Shown here: positions 9,943-47,848 of the stretch, piece by piece
How positions within the stretch are numbered: position 1 is the first letter of the stretch
How the letters are laid out: every line of letters starts with the position of its first letter
DNA from: Candidatus Enterousia sp.
Lineage (GTDB): Bacteria; Pseudomonadota; Alphaproteobacteria; Rs-D84
Length of the DNA: 64,000 bases
Direction of reading: 5' to 3'
Assembly (NCBI GenBank): GCA_045593685.1
Contig: JAZNXD010000023.1
Location: forward strand, 1,715-65,714
Position numbers and translations under genes: made by a program
Notes under the pieces: generated by a model
Told to the model about the DNA's origin: nothing
Database searches by the model: none
The model's input: the letters and a program-made list of their open reading frames with translations, nothing else

Positions 9943-10188
9943 TTATATTCTGTTTTCTTTCAAAGCCGAAAATATTTCCGCAAATTCTGTCAAACTGGTA
10001 TCGGTTGCGTTTATAATTTTTGCAATCGTTGCGCACGATGGCCAACGCGGGGTTCCATCTGGGGAAAATTGTTTGCTTTTGTTAAAGGTTGTGGCATCCA
10101 GTCCGCTAAGCCGTGCCAAGCCCGAACAGGTTAACCCCCGTGATTTTGCCAGTCTTTCGATTGTTTTCCAAAGTAATTTATGCTGCAT
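9943..10188 (-). CDS. short HTH DNA-binding protein (phage-repressor N-terminal-domain-like)
   Basis: 81 aa from the ATG at 10188, preceded by AGGGGGAA. MQHKLLWKTIERLAKSRGLTCSGLARLSGLDATTFNKSK...PRWPS. Clear paralog of 44348..44593. Confidence 0.6.
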   Translation of the reverse strand: MQHKLLWKTIERLAKSRGLTCSGLARLSGLDATTFNKSKQFSPDGTPRWPSCATIAKIINATDTSLTEFAEIFSALKENRI

Positions 10189-10391
10189 AATTCCCCCTTT
10201 CGCGTTGTTTGTAATTAGAATCACGATGTCGTTTCGCGCACAAGTTGAATTATTTCATAAATAATTGTGTTAATCAAGGACAAAAAGAGAAAAAGAACGT
10301 TGCGGCAACCGTTGGTTGAAATGGTTTTTTATTTTCTTCATTGTCAATATATGATATAATCATCGTGATGAAAGATTGAAAGGATATAAGT

Positions 10392-10799
10392 ATGGACGAT
10401 AAGAAACAGAATTTTAAACGGGCACAGCAACGGGTTATTACATATGGGGCTGTTATGAATACACTTAATGCTATTGCTAAACGCTCGGGAACAGATACGG
10501 CATCCTATAATCATAATCTGAAAGATTTCGAAGGACGCTCTGTGTCCGGGTTTGAATTTTCATCTAATGAATTGGCGGCTCAGTTGGCGAAATTGTTGGA
10601 TGATTTGGGTATAAAATATTCGCATGCCTATGACGGAATCAAATCCCGGGCGGGGCGTTTGGAAATTGCCGCTGCTGATCGTACGCGTGCAGACGAACTA
10701 TTTAAAAATTGGTCATCATGGATTATTGTTGAACCACGTATTACAGGTAACGCAGAACTGGATGCGAAATGGCAACGTGTGGTCAGTAAATCAAGATAA
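10392..10799 (+). CDS. hypothetical protein
   Basis: 135-aa ORF, divergent from the HTH gene and followed by a terminator. I recognise no family. Confidence 0.45.
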   Translation: MDDKKQNFKRAQQRVITYGAVMNTLNAIAKRSGTDTASYNHNLKDFEGRSVSGFEFSSNELAAQLAKLLDDLGIKYSHAYDGIKSRAGRLEIAAADRTRADELFKNWSSWIIVEPRITGNAELDAKWQRVVSKSR

Positions 10800-10801
10800 A
10801 A

Positions 10802-10828
10802 GAACGGTGCAAATTGCACCGTTTTTAA
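10802..10828. terminator. bidirectional intrinsic terminator
   Basis: ACGGTGCAAATTGCACCGT hairpin with flanking A/T runs, between convergent genes. Confidence 0.65.
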
Positions 10829-11526
10829 TCACGCCATACAACTGATTTAAACATTGTGTTTATTTTGCTTATCAACTCAGAATCTGTAAAGAACTGATTC
10901 CGCATAGCGTCTGTTGTTTTATTCTCATCGGTTTCAAAGTGCGGAATATACTTTTGTATCGCAATATTTTTTACATCACGCATCGCCAGGATTTCCGCAA
11001 TTTCGATTAAGTCGTTTTTACTAATAAAACGCGGATCGCATGTTACGCGAACCTCGAAATCTTTATTGTGGGAAATTAATATATCCAAACTGCGCACCAT
11101 ATTGTCGTACGCAATATGTTGACCCGTCAAATCCGGATATTTATCGCGCGTAGCCTTGAAATCCAGCCCGACCCAGTCAATTACATCAATCACTTTTTCC
11201 AGTATATTTGGATAAAAACCATTGGTGTGCAGTCCGATTTTAAACCCCAATTCACGCACACGCCGCATGTAATCAACCGCGACATCACCTTGCATTAACG
11301 CTTCGCCACCTGAAAAAACAATGGCTTCCAGTTTTCCAACACGTGATTTTATCCAATCAAAGACACGCGTCGGATCATAATCCCCGTCCCCGGGGCATAA
11401 TAAATGGGGATTGGAACAATACACGCACCGCAAAGGACAACCCGTCAGAAACAAAACCGCGGCCAGTTTCCCTGGGTAGTCAATGGTGGTAAATGAAACC
11501 AATCCCCCAATTTGAACTTCACGCAT
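10825..11526 (-). CDS. nrdG: anaerobic ribonucleoside-triphosphate reductase activating protein (radical SAM)
   Basis: FTTIDYPGKLAAVLFLTGCPLRCVYCSNPHL carries the CxxxCxxC radical-SAM cluster motif. Located immediately downstream of nrdD. Confidence 0.85.
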   Translation of the reverse strand: MREVQIGGLVSFTTIDYPGKLAAVLFLTGCPLRCVYCSNPHLLCPGDGDYDPTRVFDWIKSRVGKLEAIVFSGGEALMQGDVAVDYMRRVRELGFKIGLHTNGFYPNILEKVIDVIDWVGLDFKATRDKYPDLTGQHIAYDNMVRSLDILISHNKDFEVRVTCDPRFISKNDLIEIAEILAMRDVKNIAIQKYIPHFETDENKTTDAMRNQFFTDSELISKINTMFKSVVWRD

Positions 11527-26854: not shown

Positions 26855-28033
26855 TTATTTGTTTTTATTTGTGTTCATGACGCATTCTTTGTATTCGTCC
26901 GGACTGGTTTTTGTCCAGCATTGATCATTAACGGATTGTGTGTCACCATAACTGGCTTTTGTTTTTCCGCGCCCATACATTAAATCTAACTTGGTCAGTC
27001 CGATTGCCTTGGCGCAATAATTGTTTGTTGCATTGTTTTTATTGAATATATATCCGGTGTCGCACTTTACGCACGTCCCATCAATCGGATGCGGTCCACC
27101 ACGATTGTTGGTGGCGCAATCAATACATGTGTGGTCGGTTACGCTGGCAAAGGTTTGTCCGGCGTTTTTGCATTTGTATTTGTAACAGTTGTCGACCATT
27201 TCCAATGCGTGCATATCATCGCGATATCCCGATATGCTCCATCCATTGCACATATTGGTCGATGCCTGCGCCATGGAACATGTCGATGCATTAATGGGCT
27301 CGCAATCTGTATTGCTGATATTTGGTTGATAACCATTTTTACAAACCAATATTCGCGAGCTAGCATTTGCAGGATATACTTGCAGGTCTTTACCCATGGC
27401 GCTAAATTCCATCTGGCGTGCCCATGCCCCATTCCCACTGGGCAGAAATTTATCAATCGCCAATAAAATATCGTGTTCTACATTACCTACATTTTTTTCT
27501 GCGTTCGGGGCATAACATTTTCTACGTTTTGATGTTTGAAAATATGAAAAAGTATATTCGATATTTGACCAGTTTTCATTAGGTTTGATGTTATTGTAAT
27601 TTTCGCGCAGAAATGGTGTTATGTCGCATGTTCCGGCGTAATCTGAAACCTTGGTCAGACATTTGTCGCCCGTATATCCTGCGCGACACAGCCATATACA
27701 TGTATTATTCCCCAACGGTTCCGCAAAGAGCGAAGAATTGTCGTCGTTCCCCATAAACTGGGTTGGGCAAAAATACGCCCCATATTGATTAACCTGCCTG
27801 GCCAACATAAACAAATACGCATAGCCGTCGCTGATTTCTAATTTTGCCTTGTACGCATTACAGTCTGCGGCAATTAATTCTTTGCCGATGCAGCCCTGGG
27901 TGTTTGTTTCGTTGCAAAGAATCCAATTTAACTTACCGCCCCATGCATTTTGTATGTCGGTTGACAATATCGTGTGCGCAAATGCCGATGTTGACAGTAA
28001 TGCATACGAAAACAAGAATACTAATCGTTTCAT
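26855..28033 (-). CDS. secreted cysteine-rich protein with C-x-x-G-Y-type (EGF/furin-repeat-like) motifs
   Basis: Start set at the ATG at 28033 (GGGGGAAATTC upstream) giving signal peptide MKRLVFLFSYALLSTSAFA. Motifs CIWLCRAGYTGDKC, VCKNGYQPNISNTDC, CVKCDTGYIFNKNNATNNYC. More than 30 Cys. Confidence 0.55.
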   Translation of the reverse strand: MKRLVFLFSYALLSTSAFAHTILSTDIQNAWGGKLNWILCNETNTQGCIGKELIAADCNAYKAKLEISDGYAYLFMLARQVNQYGAYFCPTQFMGNDDNSSLFAEPLGNNTCIWLCRAGYTGDKCLTKVSDYAGTCDITPFLRENYNNIKPNENWSNIEYTFSYFQTSKRRKCYAPNAEKNVGNVEHDILLAIDKFLPSGNGAWARQMEFSAMGKDLQVYPANASSRILVCKNGYQPNISNTDCEPINASTCSMAQASTNMCNGWSISGYRDDMHALEMVDNCYKYKCKNAGQTFASVTDHTCIDCATNNRGGPHPIDGTCVKCDTGYIFNKNNATNNYCAKAIGLTKLDLMYGRGKTKASYGDTQSVNDQCWTKTSPDEYKECVMNTNKNK

Positions 28034-28049
28034 GAATTTCCCCCTGTGT

Positions 28050-28326
28050 AAAAAAAGACCGCCAGGGATTATTGACGGTCGGGGTGCTAGAAAAATCATA
28101 TCAAAGAATGACCCCGTTGGTCTTTGGGGCATATGCCCCTGTTGTATAACCAACGGCACCCCGACATTTAAACGGGGAAACATAACAAAAGGCGCATCCG
28201 CGCCATTTTTATGCGGATATCAGTGTACGTATCATACACCGCTTTGATAAAGGCTTTTCTAAGGCCCCGAACCCACATCCCTGTGGATTCATAAAAATTT
28301 TAACAAATAATCAAACCCAATGTCAA
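28050..28326 (-). promoter_or_regulatory. promoter plus ~240-nt structured leader with two intrinsic terminators (leader family copy C)
   Basis: On the minus strand: TTGACA (28321-28326), 18-nt spacer, TAAAAT (28297-28302); 5' hairpin CCACA/TGTGG; internal terminator GGCGCGGATGCGCC+T-run (28191-28204); complementary segments CCCCG / GTCGGGGTGC / GCACCCCGAC; terminal hairpin GACCG..CGGTC + T7 (28050-28080) immediately before the RBS. Confidence 0.45.
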
Positions 28327-28366
28327 TCAATTAGATAAATAAAAGTTTAGTAAATAATTTATCACA

Positions 28367-28674
28367 TTTGTCATCCCGTGGCTTGACCCCGGAACCCAGG
28401 TTGTATCTTCCTTTTGTCATCCCGTGGCTTGACCCCGGAACCCAGGTTGTACCTTCCTTTTGTCATCCCGTGGCTTGACCCCGGAACCCAGGTTGTATCT
28501 TCCCTTTGTCATCCCGTGGCTTGACCACGGAACCCAGGTTGTATCTTCCTTTTGTCATCCCGTGGCTTGACCCCGGCTCCCAGGTTGTATCTTCCCTTTG
28601 TCATCCCGTGGCTTGACCACGGGACCCAGGTTATACATCAACTTTGTCATTCCCGCGCAGGCGGGAACAGGGTC
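28367..28674. repeat. tandem array of six 46-bp repeats plus one variant unit
   Basis: The unit TTTGTCATCCCGTGGCTTGACC(C/A)CGG(A/G)ACCCAGGTTGTATCTTCC(T/C) starts at 28367, 28413, 28459, 28505, 28551 and 28597 (exact 46-bp period). A seventh unit at 28643 is the variant TTTGTCATTCCCGCGCAGGCGGGAACAGGGTC. Units contain the palindrome CCCGTGG..CCACGGG. Confidence 0.9.
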
Positions 28675-28797
28675 AAAAAAGTTAACAAACAGATGGATAA
28701 AAGTTTGGTTGTTTTTTTTACAATTTTTATTCACAAAACATAAAATGATTTTGTAAATTATTTACCAAACTAAGCTTTCATTTGTTGTGACAACAAA

Positions 28798-35284: not shown

Positions 35285-35369
<85 letters not shown>

Positions 35370-35446
35370 AAACTCACCTTGTTTGCGCGTATAACATCGG
35401 GCCATAGGCGACTACGAAGTGCTGCGAAGCGACTAGGAAGCGCAAC

Positions 35447-35478
35447 GCGACACCACGGTCAAGCGTCGGAATGACAAG
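35447..35478 (-). repeat. dispersed palindromic element (same family as the 28367 array, inverted)
   Basis: The reverse complement reads CTTGTCATTCCGACGCTTGACCGTGGTGTCGC (compare TTGTCATCCCGTGGCTTGACCACGG). Confidence 0.6.
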
Positions 35479-35576
35479 TTTGTTTAATTTAAAACAAATT
35501 TTAAATTTACGGACTGACAGAATTTTTTGCAAAAATTCTGTGGGGCGTTCAACTAAACTTTTATTCATTTTTCTAA

Positions 35577-35828
35577 TTGACATTTTGGTTGTGCGTTTAC
35601 TACAATACCCATGTCATGGCGGGTTGCCATGATGGGGTGTGAAGACCCGTTTATTGGCGTCAGAATAAGAACCTGTGGCGCATGCGTGCGCTGTTTTTTT
35701 ATTCTGATGATATTCTCCTGATCAATCCCACTTGGTCAGGAGGGCTTGTGAATATATTGAATAAGCAGCACAATTCCAATAAATTGTCTTCAACCTCCTG
35801 ACCACCTGAATAATTCGGTGGTTTTTTG
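35577..35828 (+). promoter_or_regulatory. promoter plus ~215-nt structured leader ending in an intrinsic terminator (leader family copy A)
   Basis: TTGACA (35577-82), 18-nt spacer, TACAAT (35601-06). Hairpin CATGGC/GCCATG. Conserved block GATGGGGTGTGAAGACCCGTTTATTGGCGTC. Internal GCGCA/TGCGC hairpin+T-run (35678-35700). CTCCTGA / GGTCAGGAGG / CCTCCTGACC triple. 17-nt loop GTGAATATATTGAATAA (35748-64). Terminator CCACC..GGTGG+T6 (35802-27). Confidence 0.55.
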
Positions 35829-35856
35829 TTTGTTATAACGGGGGAAATGTACGGGT

Positions 35857-36585: not shown

Positions 36586-36662
36586 CCGCTCTCTTTGTCT
36601 CGCTTGCCGGGAACCGCCCATGCAAATACTTATTTGTGCGGGCCCCAGGGGCATAACACCAC

Positions 36663-36690
36663 TTTTGTCATTCCCGCGACGGCGGGGACC
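36663..36690 (+). repeat. dispersed palindromic element (GTCATTCCCGCG...CGGGGAC type)
   Basis: TTTTGTCATTCCCGCGACGGCGGGGACC resembles the variant unit at 28643. Confidence 0.6.
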
Positions 36691-42366: not shown

Positions 42367-42375
42367 TTTTTGTTG

Positions 42376-42582
42376 TTGAAAATCATACACGATTTTTTTA
42401 TCATGACAACGTCGCAATGGTGTTTATTGCGATGGGGCGTCGAAACCCGTTATAAGGCATCGATTCAGATGAAAAAAAACTCCAACCCCGGGTTGGAGGG
42501 CGGTGAATATATTGAATAAACCCGCTATTCCTTATAATAGTTTCGAACCTCCAACCGCTTTGACCAACAATGCGGTTTTTTT
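42376..42582 (+). promoter_or_regulatory. promoter plus ~175-nt structured leader ending in an intrinsic terminator (leader family copy B)
   Basis: TTGAAA (42376-81), 17-nt spacer, TATCAT (42399-404). Hairpin CGCAAT/ATTGCG. Block GATGGGGCGTCGAAACCCGTTATAAGGCATC (42431-61). CTCCAACC / GGTTGGAGG / CCTCCAACC triple. Identical 17-nt loop GTGAATATATTGAATAA (42503-19). Terminator ACCGC..GCGGT+T7 (42554-82). Confidence 0.55.
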
Positions 42583-42600
42583 GAAAGAAAGGGGGAAATT

Positions 42601-43857
42601 TTGAAACGCTATTTTGTTCGGTTTGTGGGTACGGTTTTATCTGCGTTAACGGCATTTTTGACAACGGATCGTGCCGAATCCGCGCCACATTTTGATTATG
42701 AAAAAACATTCACATTGGGCAATGATAAATATACAATCACCGTTTACACCGGTGCGGCATGGTACGTTGGTTGGGTAAACCTAAACCCAAAAACAAATTC
42801 CGATGCCACGGTGGATTCAAGATGGAACAATGTATGGCGCTCTTATAATGCAGAATATTATGATCAGCCAATGGTTATCGATTATAACGCCACATCGGGC
42901 AGTTCGTCATCTGGGTATACCGGGGTTTTGATATCCGAACGCAGATTCACACGACAAATGGACTCTTATAACCCGATAAAGTTTAGCCGTTATGTGGATT
43001 CCGATGCCGAGCAGTATTTGCTGTTTGATAAATGGGTCAATTGGATTATTGATATGCCATTACTGGCATATTCGCGCAGCAGCAGTACATTTACCAATGT
43101 TGGTTGTTGTCAATATACCCCGACCGGACACACCCCGGGCAGTTACGGCTTTTCATACAGTGGTGATGGCCGTGCTGCGGATGTATGCCCGTGTTTCTAT
43201 ACCACCGCGGACAAGGTTTATACCGGTAATTCTTGCGAACAATATCAAGGCAGGGGCAAAGATTTTTGTACCGGTACATCGGTAATGGGTGTTGGTGATG
43301 AAACCAGTTCTAATTGGCCCGCCGTGGTGCGCGACGTGTTCTTTTGCTATACATATTCGGGCTGCACCAGCAGTGACACAATGTATAAATCATTTGACCC
43401 TGTAAATTATACGGGGCTAAGTGGTTGTCACATGATACGTGTCCCAATGGTCGGTTTGGTTGGTGCATATGAAAATGATTTGCAATATAATGTCGATTAT
43501 GTTTTGTTCGCAAACGGCAGTGTTGGTTTTAACGTGTTTAACCCCGAATTGGTCGAAGAAATGGATTGCGAAGCGGGCTCTAACAATCAAAAGTTCATGA
43601 GTTGCGCATCCGGCGCCACGCCAAATCTTGGTTATTTAACGTACGGTGGAACGGATGGTTGCTATACATGCCCAACTGTTGCTGGGATTTCGGTTGGTGG
43701 TTATGCGCTAAGTAATACTTCCTTCTATGTGGACGAAGAAACCGCGGGTGTTGGTGCGTGTAAATTTATAAAGCCAACATCGTCGGACACCGGTGGTGTA
43801 TTTGAGTTGACCACGTACGCGGGCGCCAGCCAAACCTGTTATGGATTTGAATCATAA
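42601..43857 (+). CDS. secreted cysteine-containing hypothetical protein
   Basis: TTG start after GGGGGAAATT. N-terminal signal/anchor MKRYFVRFVGTVLSALTAFLTT. 418 aa, ~20 Cys, Tyr/Gly/Ser/Thr-rich. I recognise no family. Confidence 0.55.
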   Translation: MKRYFVRFVGTVLSALTAFLTTDRAESAPHFDYEKTFTLGNDKYTITVYTGAAWYVGWVNLNPKTNSDATVDSRWNNVWRSYNAEYYDQPMVIDYNATSGSSSSGYTGVLISERRFTRQMDSYNPIKFSRYVDSDAEQYLLFDKWVNWIIDMPLLAYSRSSSTFTNVGCCQYTPTGHTPGSYGFSYSGDGRAADVCPCFYTTADKVYTGNSCEQYQGRGKDFCTGTSVMGVGDETSSNWPAVVRDVFFCYTYSGCTSSDTMYKSFDPVNYTGLSGCHMIRVPMVGLVGAYENDLQYNVDYVLFANGSVGFNVFNPELVEEMDCEAGSNNQKFMSCASGATPNLGYLTYGGTDGCYTCPTVAGISVGGYALSNTSFYVDEETAGVGACKFIKPTSSDTGGVFELTTYAGASQTCYGFES

Positions 43858-43865
43858 AATAAAAA

Positions 43866-43893
43866 CTTGCCCACCACACGGTGGGTTTTTTTA
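43866..43893 (+). terminator. intrinsic terminator
   Basis: CCCACCACACGGTGGG hairpin plus T7. Confidence 0.7.
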
Positions 43894-43913
43894 TGTGTTT
43901 TTTCAAAAATAAC

Positions 43914-43951
43914 TGTCATCCCACGGCTTGACCGCGGGACCCAGGTTTGTC
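43914..43951 (+). repeat. dispersed palindromic element (same family as the 28367 array)
   Basis: TGTCATCCCACGGCTTGACCGCGGGACCCAGGTTTGTC. It is the source of the spurious VIPRLDRGTQ peptide in ORF 43867..44172. Confidence 0.7.
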
Positions 43952-44145
43952 AAAAAAAACACCGCCGTTGCCGGCGGTATTTCCGAGTGCCCCGAAAGGA
44001 AGGAAAGGAGAAAAAGAAATTGGGCACTCTAAACTTGTTTCTGGGGTCCCAGAGTCCAGAGGAGAGAGAATGTAGGAGGGAGTCTGAACCTCTGGTCCCC
44101 ACAGATGCTTTCGCACCTGGTCATCGGGATTTGTCCCCTCTGACG
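43952..44145 (-). ncRNA. candidate ~190-nt small RNA with CU-rich (anti-SD-like) hairpin loops
   Basis: On the minus strand: TTGACA (44175-80), 17-nt spacer, TATATT (44152-57). Two long hairpins (GGGGACCAGAGG...CCTCTGG...CCCC with loop containing CTCCCTCCTAC; GAGTGCCC...GGGCACTC with loop TTTCTTTTTCTCCTTTCCTTCCTTTC). Terminator ACCGCCGGCAACGGCGGT + T8 (43952-43978). No convincing ORF or RBS. Confidence 0.5.
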
Positions 44146-47189: not shown

Positions 47190-47301
47190 ATAAAAAAATA
47201 ACTTTTCTTCTTTACTAATATTCATATTTCATGATAAAATATACAGTAAGAACAAAACGGATTTGTTCTGTCCAAAAAACTTTAGTAAAAGGAGAGAAAG
47301 G

Positions 47302-47763
47302 ATGGGATTTTTATTTAAAAGATCTGCAAAAAAAGTAGAAGCAGCAAAACCGGTTGCAAAACCTGCTGCCAAGAAAGCACCTGCGAAAAAAGTAGCGGCA
47401 AAACCTGCTGCCAAGAAAGCACCTGCGAAAAAAGTAGCGGCAAAACCTGTTGCGAAGAAAGCACCTGCGAAAAAAGTGGCGGCTGCAAAACCTGTTGCAA
47501 AAAAAGCACCTGCGAAAAAAGTAGCGGCAAAACCTGTTGCGAAAAAAGCACCTGCGAAAAAAGTAGCGGCAAAACCTGTTGCAAAAAAAGCACCTGCGAA
47601 AAAAGTAGTGGCAAAACCCGTTGCGAAAAAAGCACCTGCGAAAAAAGTAGCGGCAAAACCAGTTGCAAAAAAAGCACCTGCGAAAAAAGTAGCGACCAAA
47701 CCGGTTGCAAAAAAGCCATGCGCCAAAAAGGCATGTGCAAAAAAAGTTTGCAAGAAAAAATAA
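47302..47763 (+). CDS. histone H1-like Lys/Ala-rich repeat protein
   Basis: The ATG at 47302 follows AAAGGAGAGAAAGG. About 8.5 copies of [14 protein letters not shown] and a Cys-containing [17 protein letters not shown] tail. Has its own promoter-like TTTACT-18-TAAAAT and its own terminator. Confidence 0.7.
47341..47718 (+). repeat. 42-bp in-frame tandem repeat (coding, ~9 copies)
   Basis: GCAAAACCTGTTGCGAAAAAAGCACCTGCGAAAAAAGTAGCG-type units. They generate long antisense ORF artefacts (47229..47753, 47315..47740). Confidence 0.9.
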
Positions 47764-47774
47764 TCTAATCTTTA

Positions 47775-47848
47775 CCCCGCGTTTGCGGGGTTTTATTTAA
47801 ATCAGTATCAGTCAGATAATCGTGCACAGTCTGACTGATATTTTTTTA
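47775..47848 (+). terminator. two consecutive intrinsic terminators between the H1-like and capsid genes
   Basis: CCCCGCGTTTGCGGGG + TTTT (47775-94). An 11-bp stem TATCAGTCAGA/TCTGACTGATA + T7 (47806-47). Confidence 0.6.

Follow-up and report, generated by a model that had tools for sequence, protein, structure and literature searches.

The stretch of Candidatus Enterousia sp. DNA examined here (64,000 nt of contig JAZNXD010000023.1, termed the window) carries a leader sequence, copy B, for which a structured regulatory RNA had been predicted. Copy B precedes an open reading frame (ORF; 42601-43857, + strand) that starts with TTG, follows a GGGGG Shine-Dalgarno (SD) sequence beginning at 42591, and encodes 418 amino acids including 15 cysteines. 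By inspection, the product has a signal-peptide-like N-terminus. Together, the leader and its ORF form a variable 1.6-kb cassette (42367-43952, + strand) located between priA, which shows 92% identity to JAZSNY010000013, and the next conserved block. This cassette is absent at 77 of 80 priA-syntenic loci. At one locus (L170), priA lies only about 10 nt from the homologue of the feature at 43953, and two others (L213 and L230) carry a different leader-gene cassette at the same site.

A sigma-70-like promoter, TTGAAA-17-TATCAT (42376-42404, + strand), can be read from the sequence as originally proposed and matches the consensus at 10 of 12 positions. It was the sole + strand match in a scan that returned 2 sites where 1.4 were expected, which is not significant alone. 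TTGACA/TATAAT-like boxes are visible by eye 5′ of the first hairpin in most members of the RNA family described below.

The remaining parts of the leader also reside on the + strand. The 5′ hairpin, P0 (42411-42433), was identified from the minimum free energy (MFE) fold and has 7-9 bp and a GGUGUUU loop. Its stem, reported earlier as CGCAAT/ATTGCG, is present as TCGCAAT/ATTGCGA (42412-42432), and the stem sequence changes in copy A (the second leader of the original prediction) and in other members with pairing maintained. Next is a small GGGG/CCC hairpin, Pa (42434-42448), whose stem covaries across members (e.g., GAGG/CCUC and GGAG/CUCC) and whose loop carries a segment termed a1, UCGAAAC (42440-46). 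The adjoining segment b1, GUUAUAAGG (42449-42457), is complementary to the loop of the P3 hairpin and was recognized by comparing own with non-own pairing. It is followed by hairpin Hx (42458-42471; MFE fold), with the sequence CAUC-GAUUCA-GAUG, at a site where most family members form a hairpin of variable sequence. A block previously noted at 42431-42461 is indeed present and unique in the window, but the pairing assigned to it was wrong. CATC (42458-61) pairs with the downstream GATG (42468-71) to form this family-wide hairpin, and not with the upstream GATG.

An A-tract (42472-79) then leads into strand U, CUCCAACC (42480-87), a decoy partner of the 5′ strand in the stem that closes the core of the RNA. 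That 5′ strand, X, is GGUUGGAGG (42491-42499), which begins with GGU, and the 3′ strand, D, is CCUCCAACC (42548-42556); together they form closing stem P1. Enclosed by P1 are hairpin P2 (42500-42523), which is supported by covariation and has a conserved 15-nt loop, GAAUAUAUUGAAUAA (42505-19), and hairpin P3 (42524-42541), with the sequence GCUAUU-CCUUAU-AAUAGU, whose loop plus 3′ flank constitutes segment b′ (42530-38). The junction linking P3 to strand D, GUUUCGAAC (42540-42548), contains segment a′ and is complementary to the Pa loop. The three strands were correctly located at the outset, with U given as CTCCAACC (42480-87), X as GGTTGGAGG (42491-99), and D as CCTCCAACC (42548-56). Likewise, the 17-mer at 42503-19 is identical to 35748-64 of copy A and has no further exact copy in the window.

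The leader ends with an intrinsic terminator, AACCGC-13 nt-GCGGUU followed by U7 (42553-42583), that has AACC in common with D. This element had been described as ACCGC/GCGGT plus T7. It exists, but its stem extends to AACCGC/GCGGTT (42553-58/42573-78), the overlap with D is 4 nt rather than 3, and the T-run is separated from the TTG codon (42601) by 17 nt rather than 18. The consensus scan missed this terminator because its loop is longer than 8 nt.

The two leaders were originally regarded as a two-copy orphan of riboswitch type. This view did not survive, as they belong to a large family that includes a third copy in the window. A search of a genome collection with the 17-mer returned at least 119 loci, which were the source of the chromosomal family members. 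Among the matches listed, about 60% are gut or rumen Alphaproteobacteria metagenome-assembled genomes (MAGs), many of them named Candidatus Enterousia, that present one common layout. The proposed covariance-model check was carried out with a model, R1, built on the 3′ half of the leader and used with an E-value cut-off of 1e-6. Within the same listed matches, R1 identifies 85 copies spread over 66 loci of gut or rumen Alphaproteobacteria, frequently two or three per 8-kb piece and at times in tandem, and it recovers the known leaders with scores of 108.6 bits (copy B) and 87.8 bits (copy A); copy C, the third in the window, scores 25.5 bits. A search of IMG/VR with the 17-mer yielded 26 uncultivated phage contigs with the motif, scoring 52-68 bits. 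In comparison, BLASTN of copy B and one phage copy against GenBank phages gave no match, Rfam at gathering threshold detected three tRNAs only over the window, and a literature search on Enterousia RNA motifs or on C4 RNAs in Alphaproteobacteria found nothing relevant.

The copy B leader is a real, selected RNA structure rather than the trace of a recent duplication, as had been argued from two copies. The full-leader fold differs from shuffled sequences with z = -5.35 for copy B and -7.1 for copy A. When P1, P2, P3, and the terminator are considered across the 85 sequences, 95% of cells are paired and double changes occur in 22 of 23 pairs; 0 of 500 shuffles reach the observed pairing, and slid registers also fall far below it. 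The X:D closing stem is paired in 98% of cells with double changes in 8 of its 9 pairs, and such changes affect all 5 pairs of P2 and all 6 pairs of P3, including a UA to AU exchange in 24 sequences. G-U pairs are frequent (e.g., UG in 34 sequences and GU in 44), and their abundance indicates that the + strand RNA is the selected molecule. Conservation beyond the helices includes GGAG in P1 in more than 90% of copies and a GG start of X in at least 73 of 85, with U as the third base in 66 of 85. The P2 loop follows the pattern GAAUA-N3-4-RAAUAA; its variants include indels of 1-2 nt and, once, an inserted hairpin.

Two other readings of this loop were discarded. Translation of the 17-mer as part of a leader peptide (GUG AAU AUA UUG AAU AA) is ruled out by the indels and the hairpin insertion, and the palindrome AAUAUAUU that might have mediated a kissing dimer is lost in loop variants.

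Within this conserved framework, the P3 loop and the P3-D junction are hypervariable and complementary to two copy-specific upstream segments. In copy B, UCGAAAC (42440-46) is matched by GUUUCGA (42540-46) to form the a pair, and GUUAUAAGG (42449-57) is matched by CCUUAUAAU (42530-38) to form the b pair. The corresponding partners in copy A are UGAAGAC/GUCUUCA and UUUAUUGG/CCAAUAAA. Family-wide, complementarity is seen in 82% of own versus 18% of non-own combinations for a1:a′ and in 69% versus 22% for b1:b′, and the cassettes of L213 and L230, which occupy the same genomic site as copy B, carry compensatory a and b changes. The statement in the original prediction that stems differ while loops and junctions are conserved therefore applies only to the 17-mer loop; copies A and B have different Pa loops, P3 loops, and junctions before D, and these covary with one another. 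Pairing of hypervariable segments with copy-specific upstream sites speaks against a riboswitch-type view, and the anatomy is that of the C4 RNA of phage P1 together with its a1 and b1 sites. C4 RNA is a phage immunity factor.

The phage members of the family strengthen this resemblance. Their motif lies 10-20 nt 5′ of Bro-N/Ant anti-repressor or Rha-like genes, with an integrase gene adjoining in one contig (L130), and additional sites, a2 and b2, occur downstream. These sites are complementary to a′ and b′ in 90% of own versus 41% of non-own combinations (a) and in 90% versus 19% (b), and b2 is fused to the SD sequence (e.g., CUAUGUA/TACATAGGAG and GCUAGUUA/TAACTAGGAG). By analogy, the phage members look like full functional analogues of C4. 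The temperate phage contig L130 contains two motif-Ant units in addition to the integrase gene, and a reverse transcriptase gene lies about 1.3 kb from its second motif copy (10157-11452).

Such an anti-repressor operon is not the setting of copy B, which precedes a secreted cysteine-rich orphan in a chromosomal cassette. Among chromosomal copies, including copy B, a2 and b2 were sought at the ribosome-binding site (RBS) of the next gene and no convincing sites were found (28% versus 16% and 26% versus 17%). Pairing of the P3 loop or of the conserved loop with the downstream RBS was also considered for these copies and rejected for want of enrichment. Within the 64-kb window, candidate trans targets for a′ and b′ of copies A, B, and C amount to single 8-mers at chance level only. 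One further sequence, UUUUGAAAC, lies over the TTG start of the copy B gene (42599-42607) and could form 8 bp with a′, one G-U pair included. This pairing site is present in the orthologous cassette of L168 and absent in that of L213 despite the same a′, and it is probably a product of chance or a vestige of an a2 site.

What the chromosomal copies possess instead is a terminator. After D, 92% of chromosomal copies have a T-rich tract, versus 25% of phage copies. In copy B, the 5′ arm of the terminator overlaps the X:D helix, and X:D is in turn subject to competition from the upstream strand U. This arrangement of U:X and X:D alternatives with an overlapping intrinsic terminator had been anticipated for copies A and B, and it proves to be conserved and covarying family-wide; the U:X helix is paired in 86% of cells across the 85 sequences, with double changes in 6 of 7 pairs. 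Thus, X is shown to have two competing helices, one of which disables the terminator, and both are under selection.

Fold energies were obtained for the unconstrained MFE structure and with X:D forced only. Of 56 chromosomal leaders, 49 have X paired with U in the MFE structure; X:D appears there in just three copies, all of which lack U. For copy B, the MFE is -72.4 kcal/mol, versus -53.9 kcal/mol with P1 (X:D) forced, and the MFE structure includes U:X, the complete terminator, and pairing of a1/b1 with a′/b′. U:X plus terminator is therefore the predicted ground state, which corresponds to the off state. On the opposite strand, 42472-42498 has a different appearance: the U:X hairpin and the complement of the A-tract form a textbook intrinsic terminator with an 8-bp stem and T8. 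No - strand gene ends there, and the A-rich tract before U is kept across the family.

Taking these observations together, we lean toward the view that copy B is a C4-type RNA module that acts as the 5′ leader of its cassette gene. The leader would be a default-off attenuator. During transcription, U:X would form first and leave D free, such that the terminator folds and transcription stops near 42583. If X instead paired with D to close the C4-like core, the terminator would be reduced to 2-3 bp and polymerase would continue into the ORF. Like C4, the closed core, with GGU at its 5′ end, would probably be a substrate for RNase P. Possible triggers include a protein that binds the conserved P2 loop, a cognate processed core RNA that binds a1 and b1 in trans, or RNA processing. 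A more elaborate version of the second possibility, which we consider a long shot, treats the a and b segments as barcodes. Each leader would answer only to its own processed core, which would bind the nascent a1 and b1 segments and favor the read-through fold. If true, dozens of secreted-protein cassettes would each carry a self-reinforcing RNA on/off switch, and an uncultured gut symbiont would have turned a phage immunity device into a means of expressing its variable surface or secreted proteins selectively, in a manner resembling phase variation.

The other two leaders in the window share this organization. Copy A (35560-35835, + strand; 87.8 bits) has an extra terminator-like hairpin (35678-35707) that copy B lacks. 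As noted previously, its downstream protein is not homologous to that of copy B (BLASTP E value of 0.41); both have, by inspection, signal-peptide-like N-termini, and a Pfam search of the two proteins matched no family. Copy A with its ORF is flanked by a tRNA-Leu gene and by gap, and a short run of GCGA/GAAG-rich repeats comes after the tRNA (35285-35366 and 35380-35470), which is a typical small-island position. Copy C (28035-28330, - strand; R1 match at 28045-28186) has a TTGACA promoter-like box, P0, and Pa. Its Pa loop, CUUAGAAAA, is complementary to the junction, UUUUUCUAG, its b1 segment, UAUCAAAG, is complementary to CUUUGAUA, and an internal terminator-like hairpin is present. Strands U (CCCCG), X (GUCGGGGUG), and D (CACCCCGAC) can all be recognized, and a GGGGCAUAUGCCCC hairpin is inserted in the P2 loop where the 17-mer stands in other copies. 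The terminator is followed by the same GGGGGAAAT SD sequence, an ATG codon at 28033, and another signal-peptide protein.

More generally, a co-oriented ORF with an SD sequence starts within about 10-40 nt of the terminator in about 43 of 66 copies. Most genes after chromosomal copies encode secreted cysteine-rich orphans, of which some contain Listeria-Bacteroides repeats; the others encode small XRE regulators. Tandem arrays were observed at four loci (L044, 2743-3183; L117, 6142-6586; L118, 129-574; L108, 5557-6094). In the first three, about 175 nt separate a full-length leader from a minimal copy behind it, which begins at X, has its own promoter-like box, and is without U, a1, and b1; in L117, 8 nt within the full leader's b1 region could pair with b′ of its minimal neighbor. 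The fourth locus has three family copies in a row. Repeats are also found near the leaders. A tandem array of a 46-bp palindromic repeat (TGTCATCCCGTGGCTTGACCACGGGACCCAGGTT) adjoins copy C (28321-28688), and single related repeats are located at the 3′ edge of the copy B cassette (43914-43947) and just after the copy A ORF (36656-36689). These palindromes may mark cassette borders or insertion sites. Elsewhere in the window (47283-47780), a direct repeat array of about 500 nt with a 42-nt (also 15/27-nt) period is presumably a repetitive coding region.

The main rival to a C4-type leader is a stand-alone, trans-acting small RNA (sRNA) gene of C4-like type, whose product would be processed by RNase P and would use a′ and b′ on distant mRNAs, with the downstream ORF a leaky neighbor. 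We judge this to be possible and rather unlikely. It has a precedent in the 21 C4-homologous sRNAs of A. baumannii (PMC5320573), and the nearest Rfam model, sRNA-Xcc1, describes a stable 88-nt RNA (PMC2996969). The minimal copies in the tandem arrays of L044, L117, and L118, which have promoter-like boxes of their own and neither U nor a1/b1, would also suit such a gene, as would a strong terminator and an off fold that is predicted to be the ground state. However, an SD-bearing, co-oriented ORF follows the terminator by about 10-40 nt in roughly two thirds of copies, so closely that there is no room for a promoter of its own. The RNAs of phage P1 and of the phage members are co-transcribed with the gene that follows, and covarying U, X, and D strands that overlap a terminator have no role in a plain sRNA. 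Moreover, no bipartite a/b target beyond each copy's own a1 and b1 was found within the 64-kb window, a weak argument given that the window is part of the genome. The predicted strong preference for the off state calls for an active factor, and the conservation of P1, the GAAUA..GAAUAA loop of P2, and the base of P3 in both Alphaproteobacteria and phage copies goes beyond the needs of pairing. One might therefore suppose that an RNA-binding protein recognizes these invariant parts and locks the closed core to cause antitermination, in which case C4 ancestry would now be irrelevant. This we doubt: copy C dispenses with the conserved loop and keeps all else. Such a protein would also be compatible with the C4-type leader, as one possible trigger within it.

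Two further explanations fare less well. A riboswitch for a small molecule or second messenger, in which the 5′ block and three-way junction serve as an aptamer and the ligand stabilizes X:D to block termination, would account for the multiple copies, the complex fold, the terminator with a competing helix, the conserved P2 loop, and diverse secreted-protein genes downstream, as seen with some signaling riboswitches. We nevertheless consider it very improbable because the positions that would form the pocket are hypervariable, with the junction and loops paired to copy-specific partners rather than forming an invariant site. The P2 loop varies by indels and a hairpin insertion, copy C has another sequence in its place, and no Rfam riboswitch family matches. 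The downstream genes encode unrelated secreted proteins, XRE regulators, and anti-repressors rather than presenting a coherent metabolic context, and the relatives that precede phage anti-repressor genes work through antisense sites at the RBS. Still less credible is the idea that conservation stems from a leader peptide ORF or from the DNA itself, acting as a recombination site or a mobile promoter cassette. The leader and gene do form a variable cassette, and the 17-mer lies within a possible reading frame that opens with GUG at 42503. However, the numerous G-U pairs are strand-specific, conservation tracks helices and not codons, loop variants carry 1-2 nt indels, and the small ORFs of copies A and B are wholly different.

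Several points weigh against the interpretation we prefer. The Rfam C4 model matches no copy tested, even at E ≤ 10, although it scores 68.8 bits on phage P1 as a positive control, and R1 scores only 3.2 bits on the P1 c4 sequence. With both models failing across families, the case for common descent with C4 is one of architecture. The C4-like RNAs of Acinetobacter stand alone (PMC5320573), so by analogy the terminator of copy B might simply end an sRNA. From fold models, we infer termination, read-through, and processing alike, and the predicted energy advantage of the off state is large, at about 10-18 kcal/mol for copy B. Finally, judging by sequence complementarity, the a1/b1 pairing may coexist with the closed core, in the manner of C4, which binds its targets with its own structure intact, or it may replace P3 and Pa. 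The b′ segment adjoins the 3′ strand of P3 with zero linker, which argues for at least partial exclusion between a1/b1 pairing and P3/Pa.

Multiplied chromosomal C4-like RNAs are already known (PMC5320573). What is new is a lineage, in gut Alphaproteobacteria and their uncultivated temperate phages, that escapes the curated models, together with its conserved P2 loop of 15 nt, the exchange of antisense targets for a terminator and a decoy strand, and its fixed place 5′ of variable secreted-protein cassettes. No description of this leader family was found in Rfam 15 or the searchable literature. The phage form retains the classical antisense targets at the anti-repressor gene, whereas the bacterial form has swapped them for the terminator and decoy. 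This pair of states offers a route to study how an antisense RNA module becomes a cis-acting transcription switch. In addition, the R1 covariance model can be used to annotate these leaders in Enterousia MAGs.

Comparison with known systems begins with C4 itself, which blocks anti-repressor expression in phage P1 (PMC8198154). When folded, the 77-nt c4 sequence of the P1 immI region (AF234172, L167) forms a closing stem, a hairpin with a UUCG loop, a second hairpin whose loop carries b′, and a 7-nt junction that is a′. The immI annotation places a1 and b1 upstream of c4, and a2 and b2 just 5′ of icd. The consensus layout of the Rfam families C4 (RF01695) and c4-a1b1 (RF03163) of clan CL00128 equals that of the family described here. 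The shared features include a three-way junction composed of the closing stem, a hairpin, a second hairpin with a b′ loop, and an a′ junction of 6-7 nt (6 nt in our family). Upstream, the consensus places a 7-bp hairpin, immediately after it a 4-bp G/C hairpin that exposes a1 in an 8-nt loop, and then b1, an anatomy that P0, Pa, and b1 of our family resemble. The pairing of a′ with a1 and of b′ with b1 also follows the order and geometry known from phage P1. In both cases the closing stem begins with GGU and ends with ..CC-aCC; GGW is given as the RNase P site of C4-type RNAs in two reports that cite Hartmann 1995 (PMC5320573; PMC3858429). Phage P1 and the phage members are alike in that the RNA is co-transcribed with the gene it precedes, and the phage members also have a2 and b2 at the RBS of an anti-repressor gene. 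A terminator-like hairpin also separates b1 from the core in phage P1, as in copies A and C. In AF234172 this region (384-416) reads as the hairpin ACCGCA-12-TGCGGT followed by ATTTTTG. Just 5′ of c4, an ACGCCC sequence could pair with GGGCGU of the closing-stem 5′ strand and is a possible counterpart of U.

There are also clear differences, beginning with the lack of detectable similarity to C4 in sequence or by covariance model. The closing stem of our family has 9 bp versus 17 in C4, the first hairpin carries a conserved 15-nt loop and not a UUCG tetraloop, and Hx, the A-tract, and the U decoy are additions. Chromosomal copies such as copy B are without a2 and b2, have an intrinsic terminator that overlaps the closing stem, and are followed by genes for secreted cysteine-rich proteins or XRE regulators, not anti-repressors. 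The c4-a1b1 model (gathering threshold 46.7) gives 13.7 bits for copy A, 17.2 bits for the L084 copy, and no match for copy B, although the anatomy of P0 and Pa is alike. These weak matches, and those to isrK, have scores too low to count alone. We therefore regard the family as a probable divergent C4-type RNA, as judged by architecture and context, and not as a member of RF01695.

In A. baumannii, 21 group 1 sRNAs homologous to C4 are processed at GGW, and some occur without the 5′ region (Weiss et al. 2016, PMC5320573). They resemble our family in that a phage C4 structure has multiplied in the chromosome (21 copies) with a variable a′ region, in the presence of both full-length and truncated, 5′-less copies, and in the GGW start at a putative RNase P site. 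They differ in being recognized by the Rfam C4 model, in their description as stand-alone sRNAs, and in their gammaproteobacterial host; neither a terminator-coupled U/X/D switch nor a fixed position relative to secreted-protein genes has been reported for them.

Repeated end-to-end alignment with members of the family was obtained with a single Rfam model, sRNA-Xcc1 (RF02221), at scores of 37.0 bits for copy B, 28.1 bits for the L113 copy, and 36.9 bits for the phage copy of L131. All of these scores are below the gathering threshold of 53, which keeps the copies outside that Rfam family, and copy A gives no match. The namesake is a trans-acting, stable 88-nt sRNA (PMC2996969), and sRNA-Xcc1 RNAs have been reported ahead of symE within integron cassettes and, in APSE phage, ahead of an ORF6N gene. 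Both groups share a closing stem of 9 bp, a pair of hairpins, a junction reading UUUNGARCC, and ..CCACC at the 3′ end, as well as a leader context in mobile elements. Pairings of the a1/b1 type have not been described for sRNA-Xcc1. Our results suggest that it may belong to the same architectural class as the family.

Lastly, copy B resembles classical attenuators and riboswitch expression platforms in having three mutually complementary strands (U, X, and D), with D overlapping an intrinsic terminator, and a local upstream hairpin that is predicted to fold first. It differs from classical attenuators in operating without a leader peptide or a known ligand or protein, and its putative antiterminator is the closing stem of a C4-type core.

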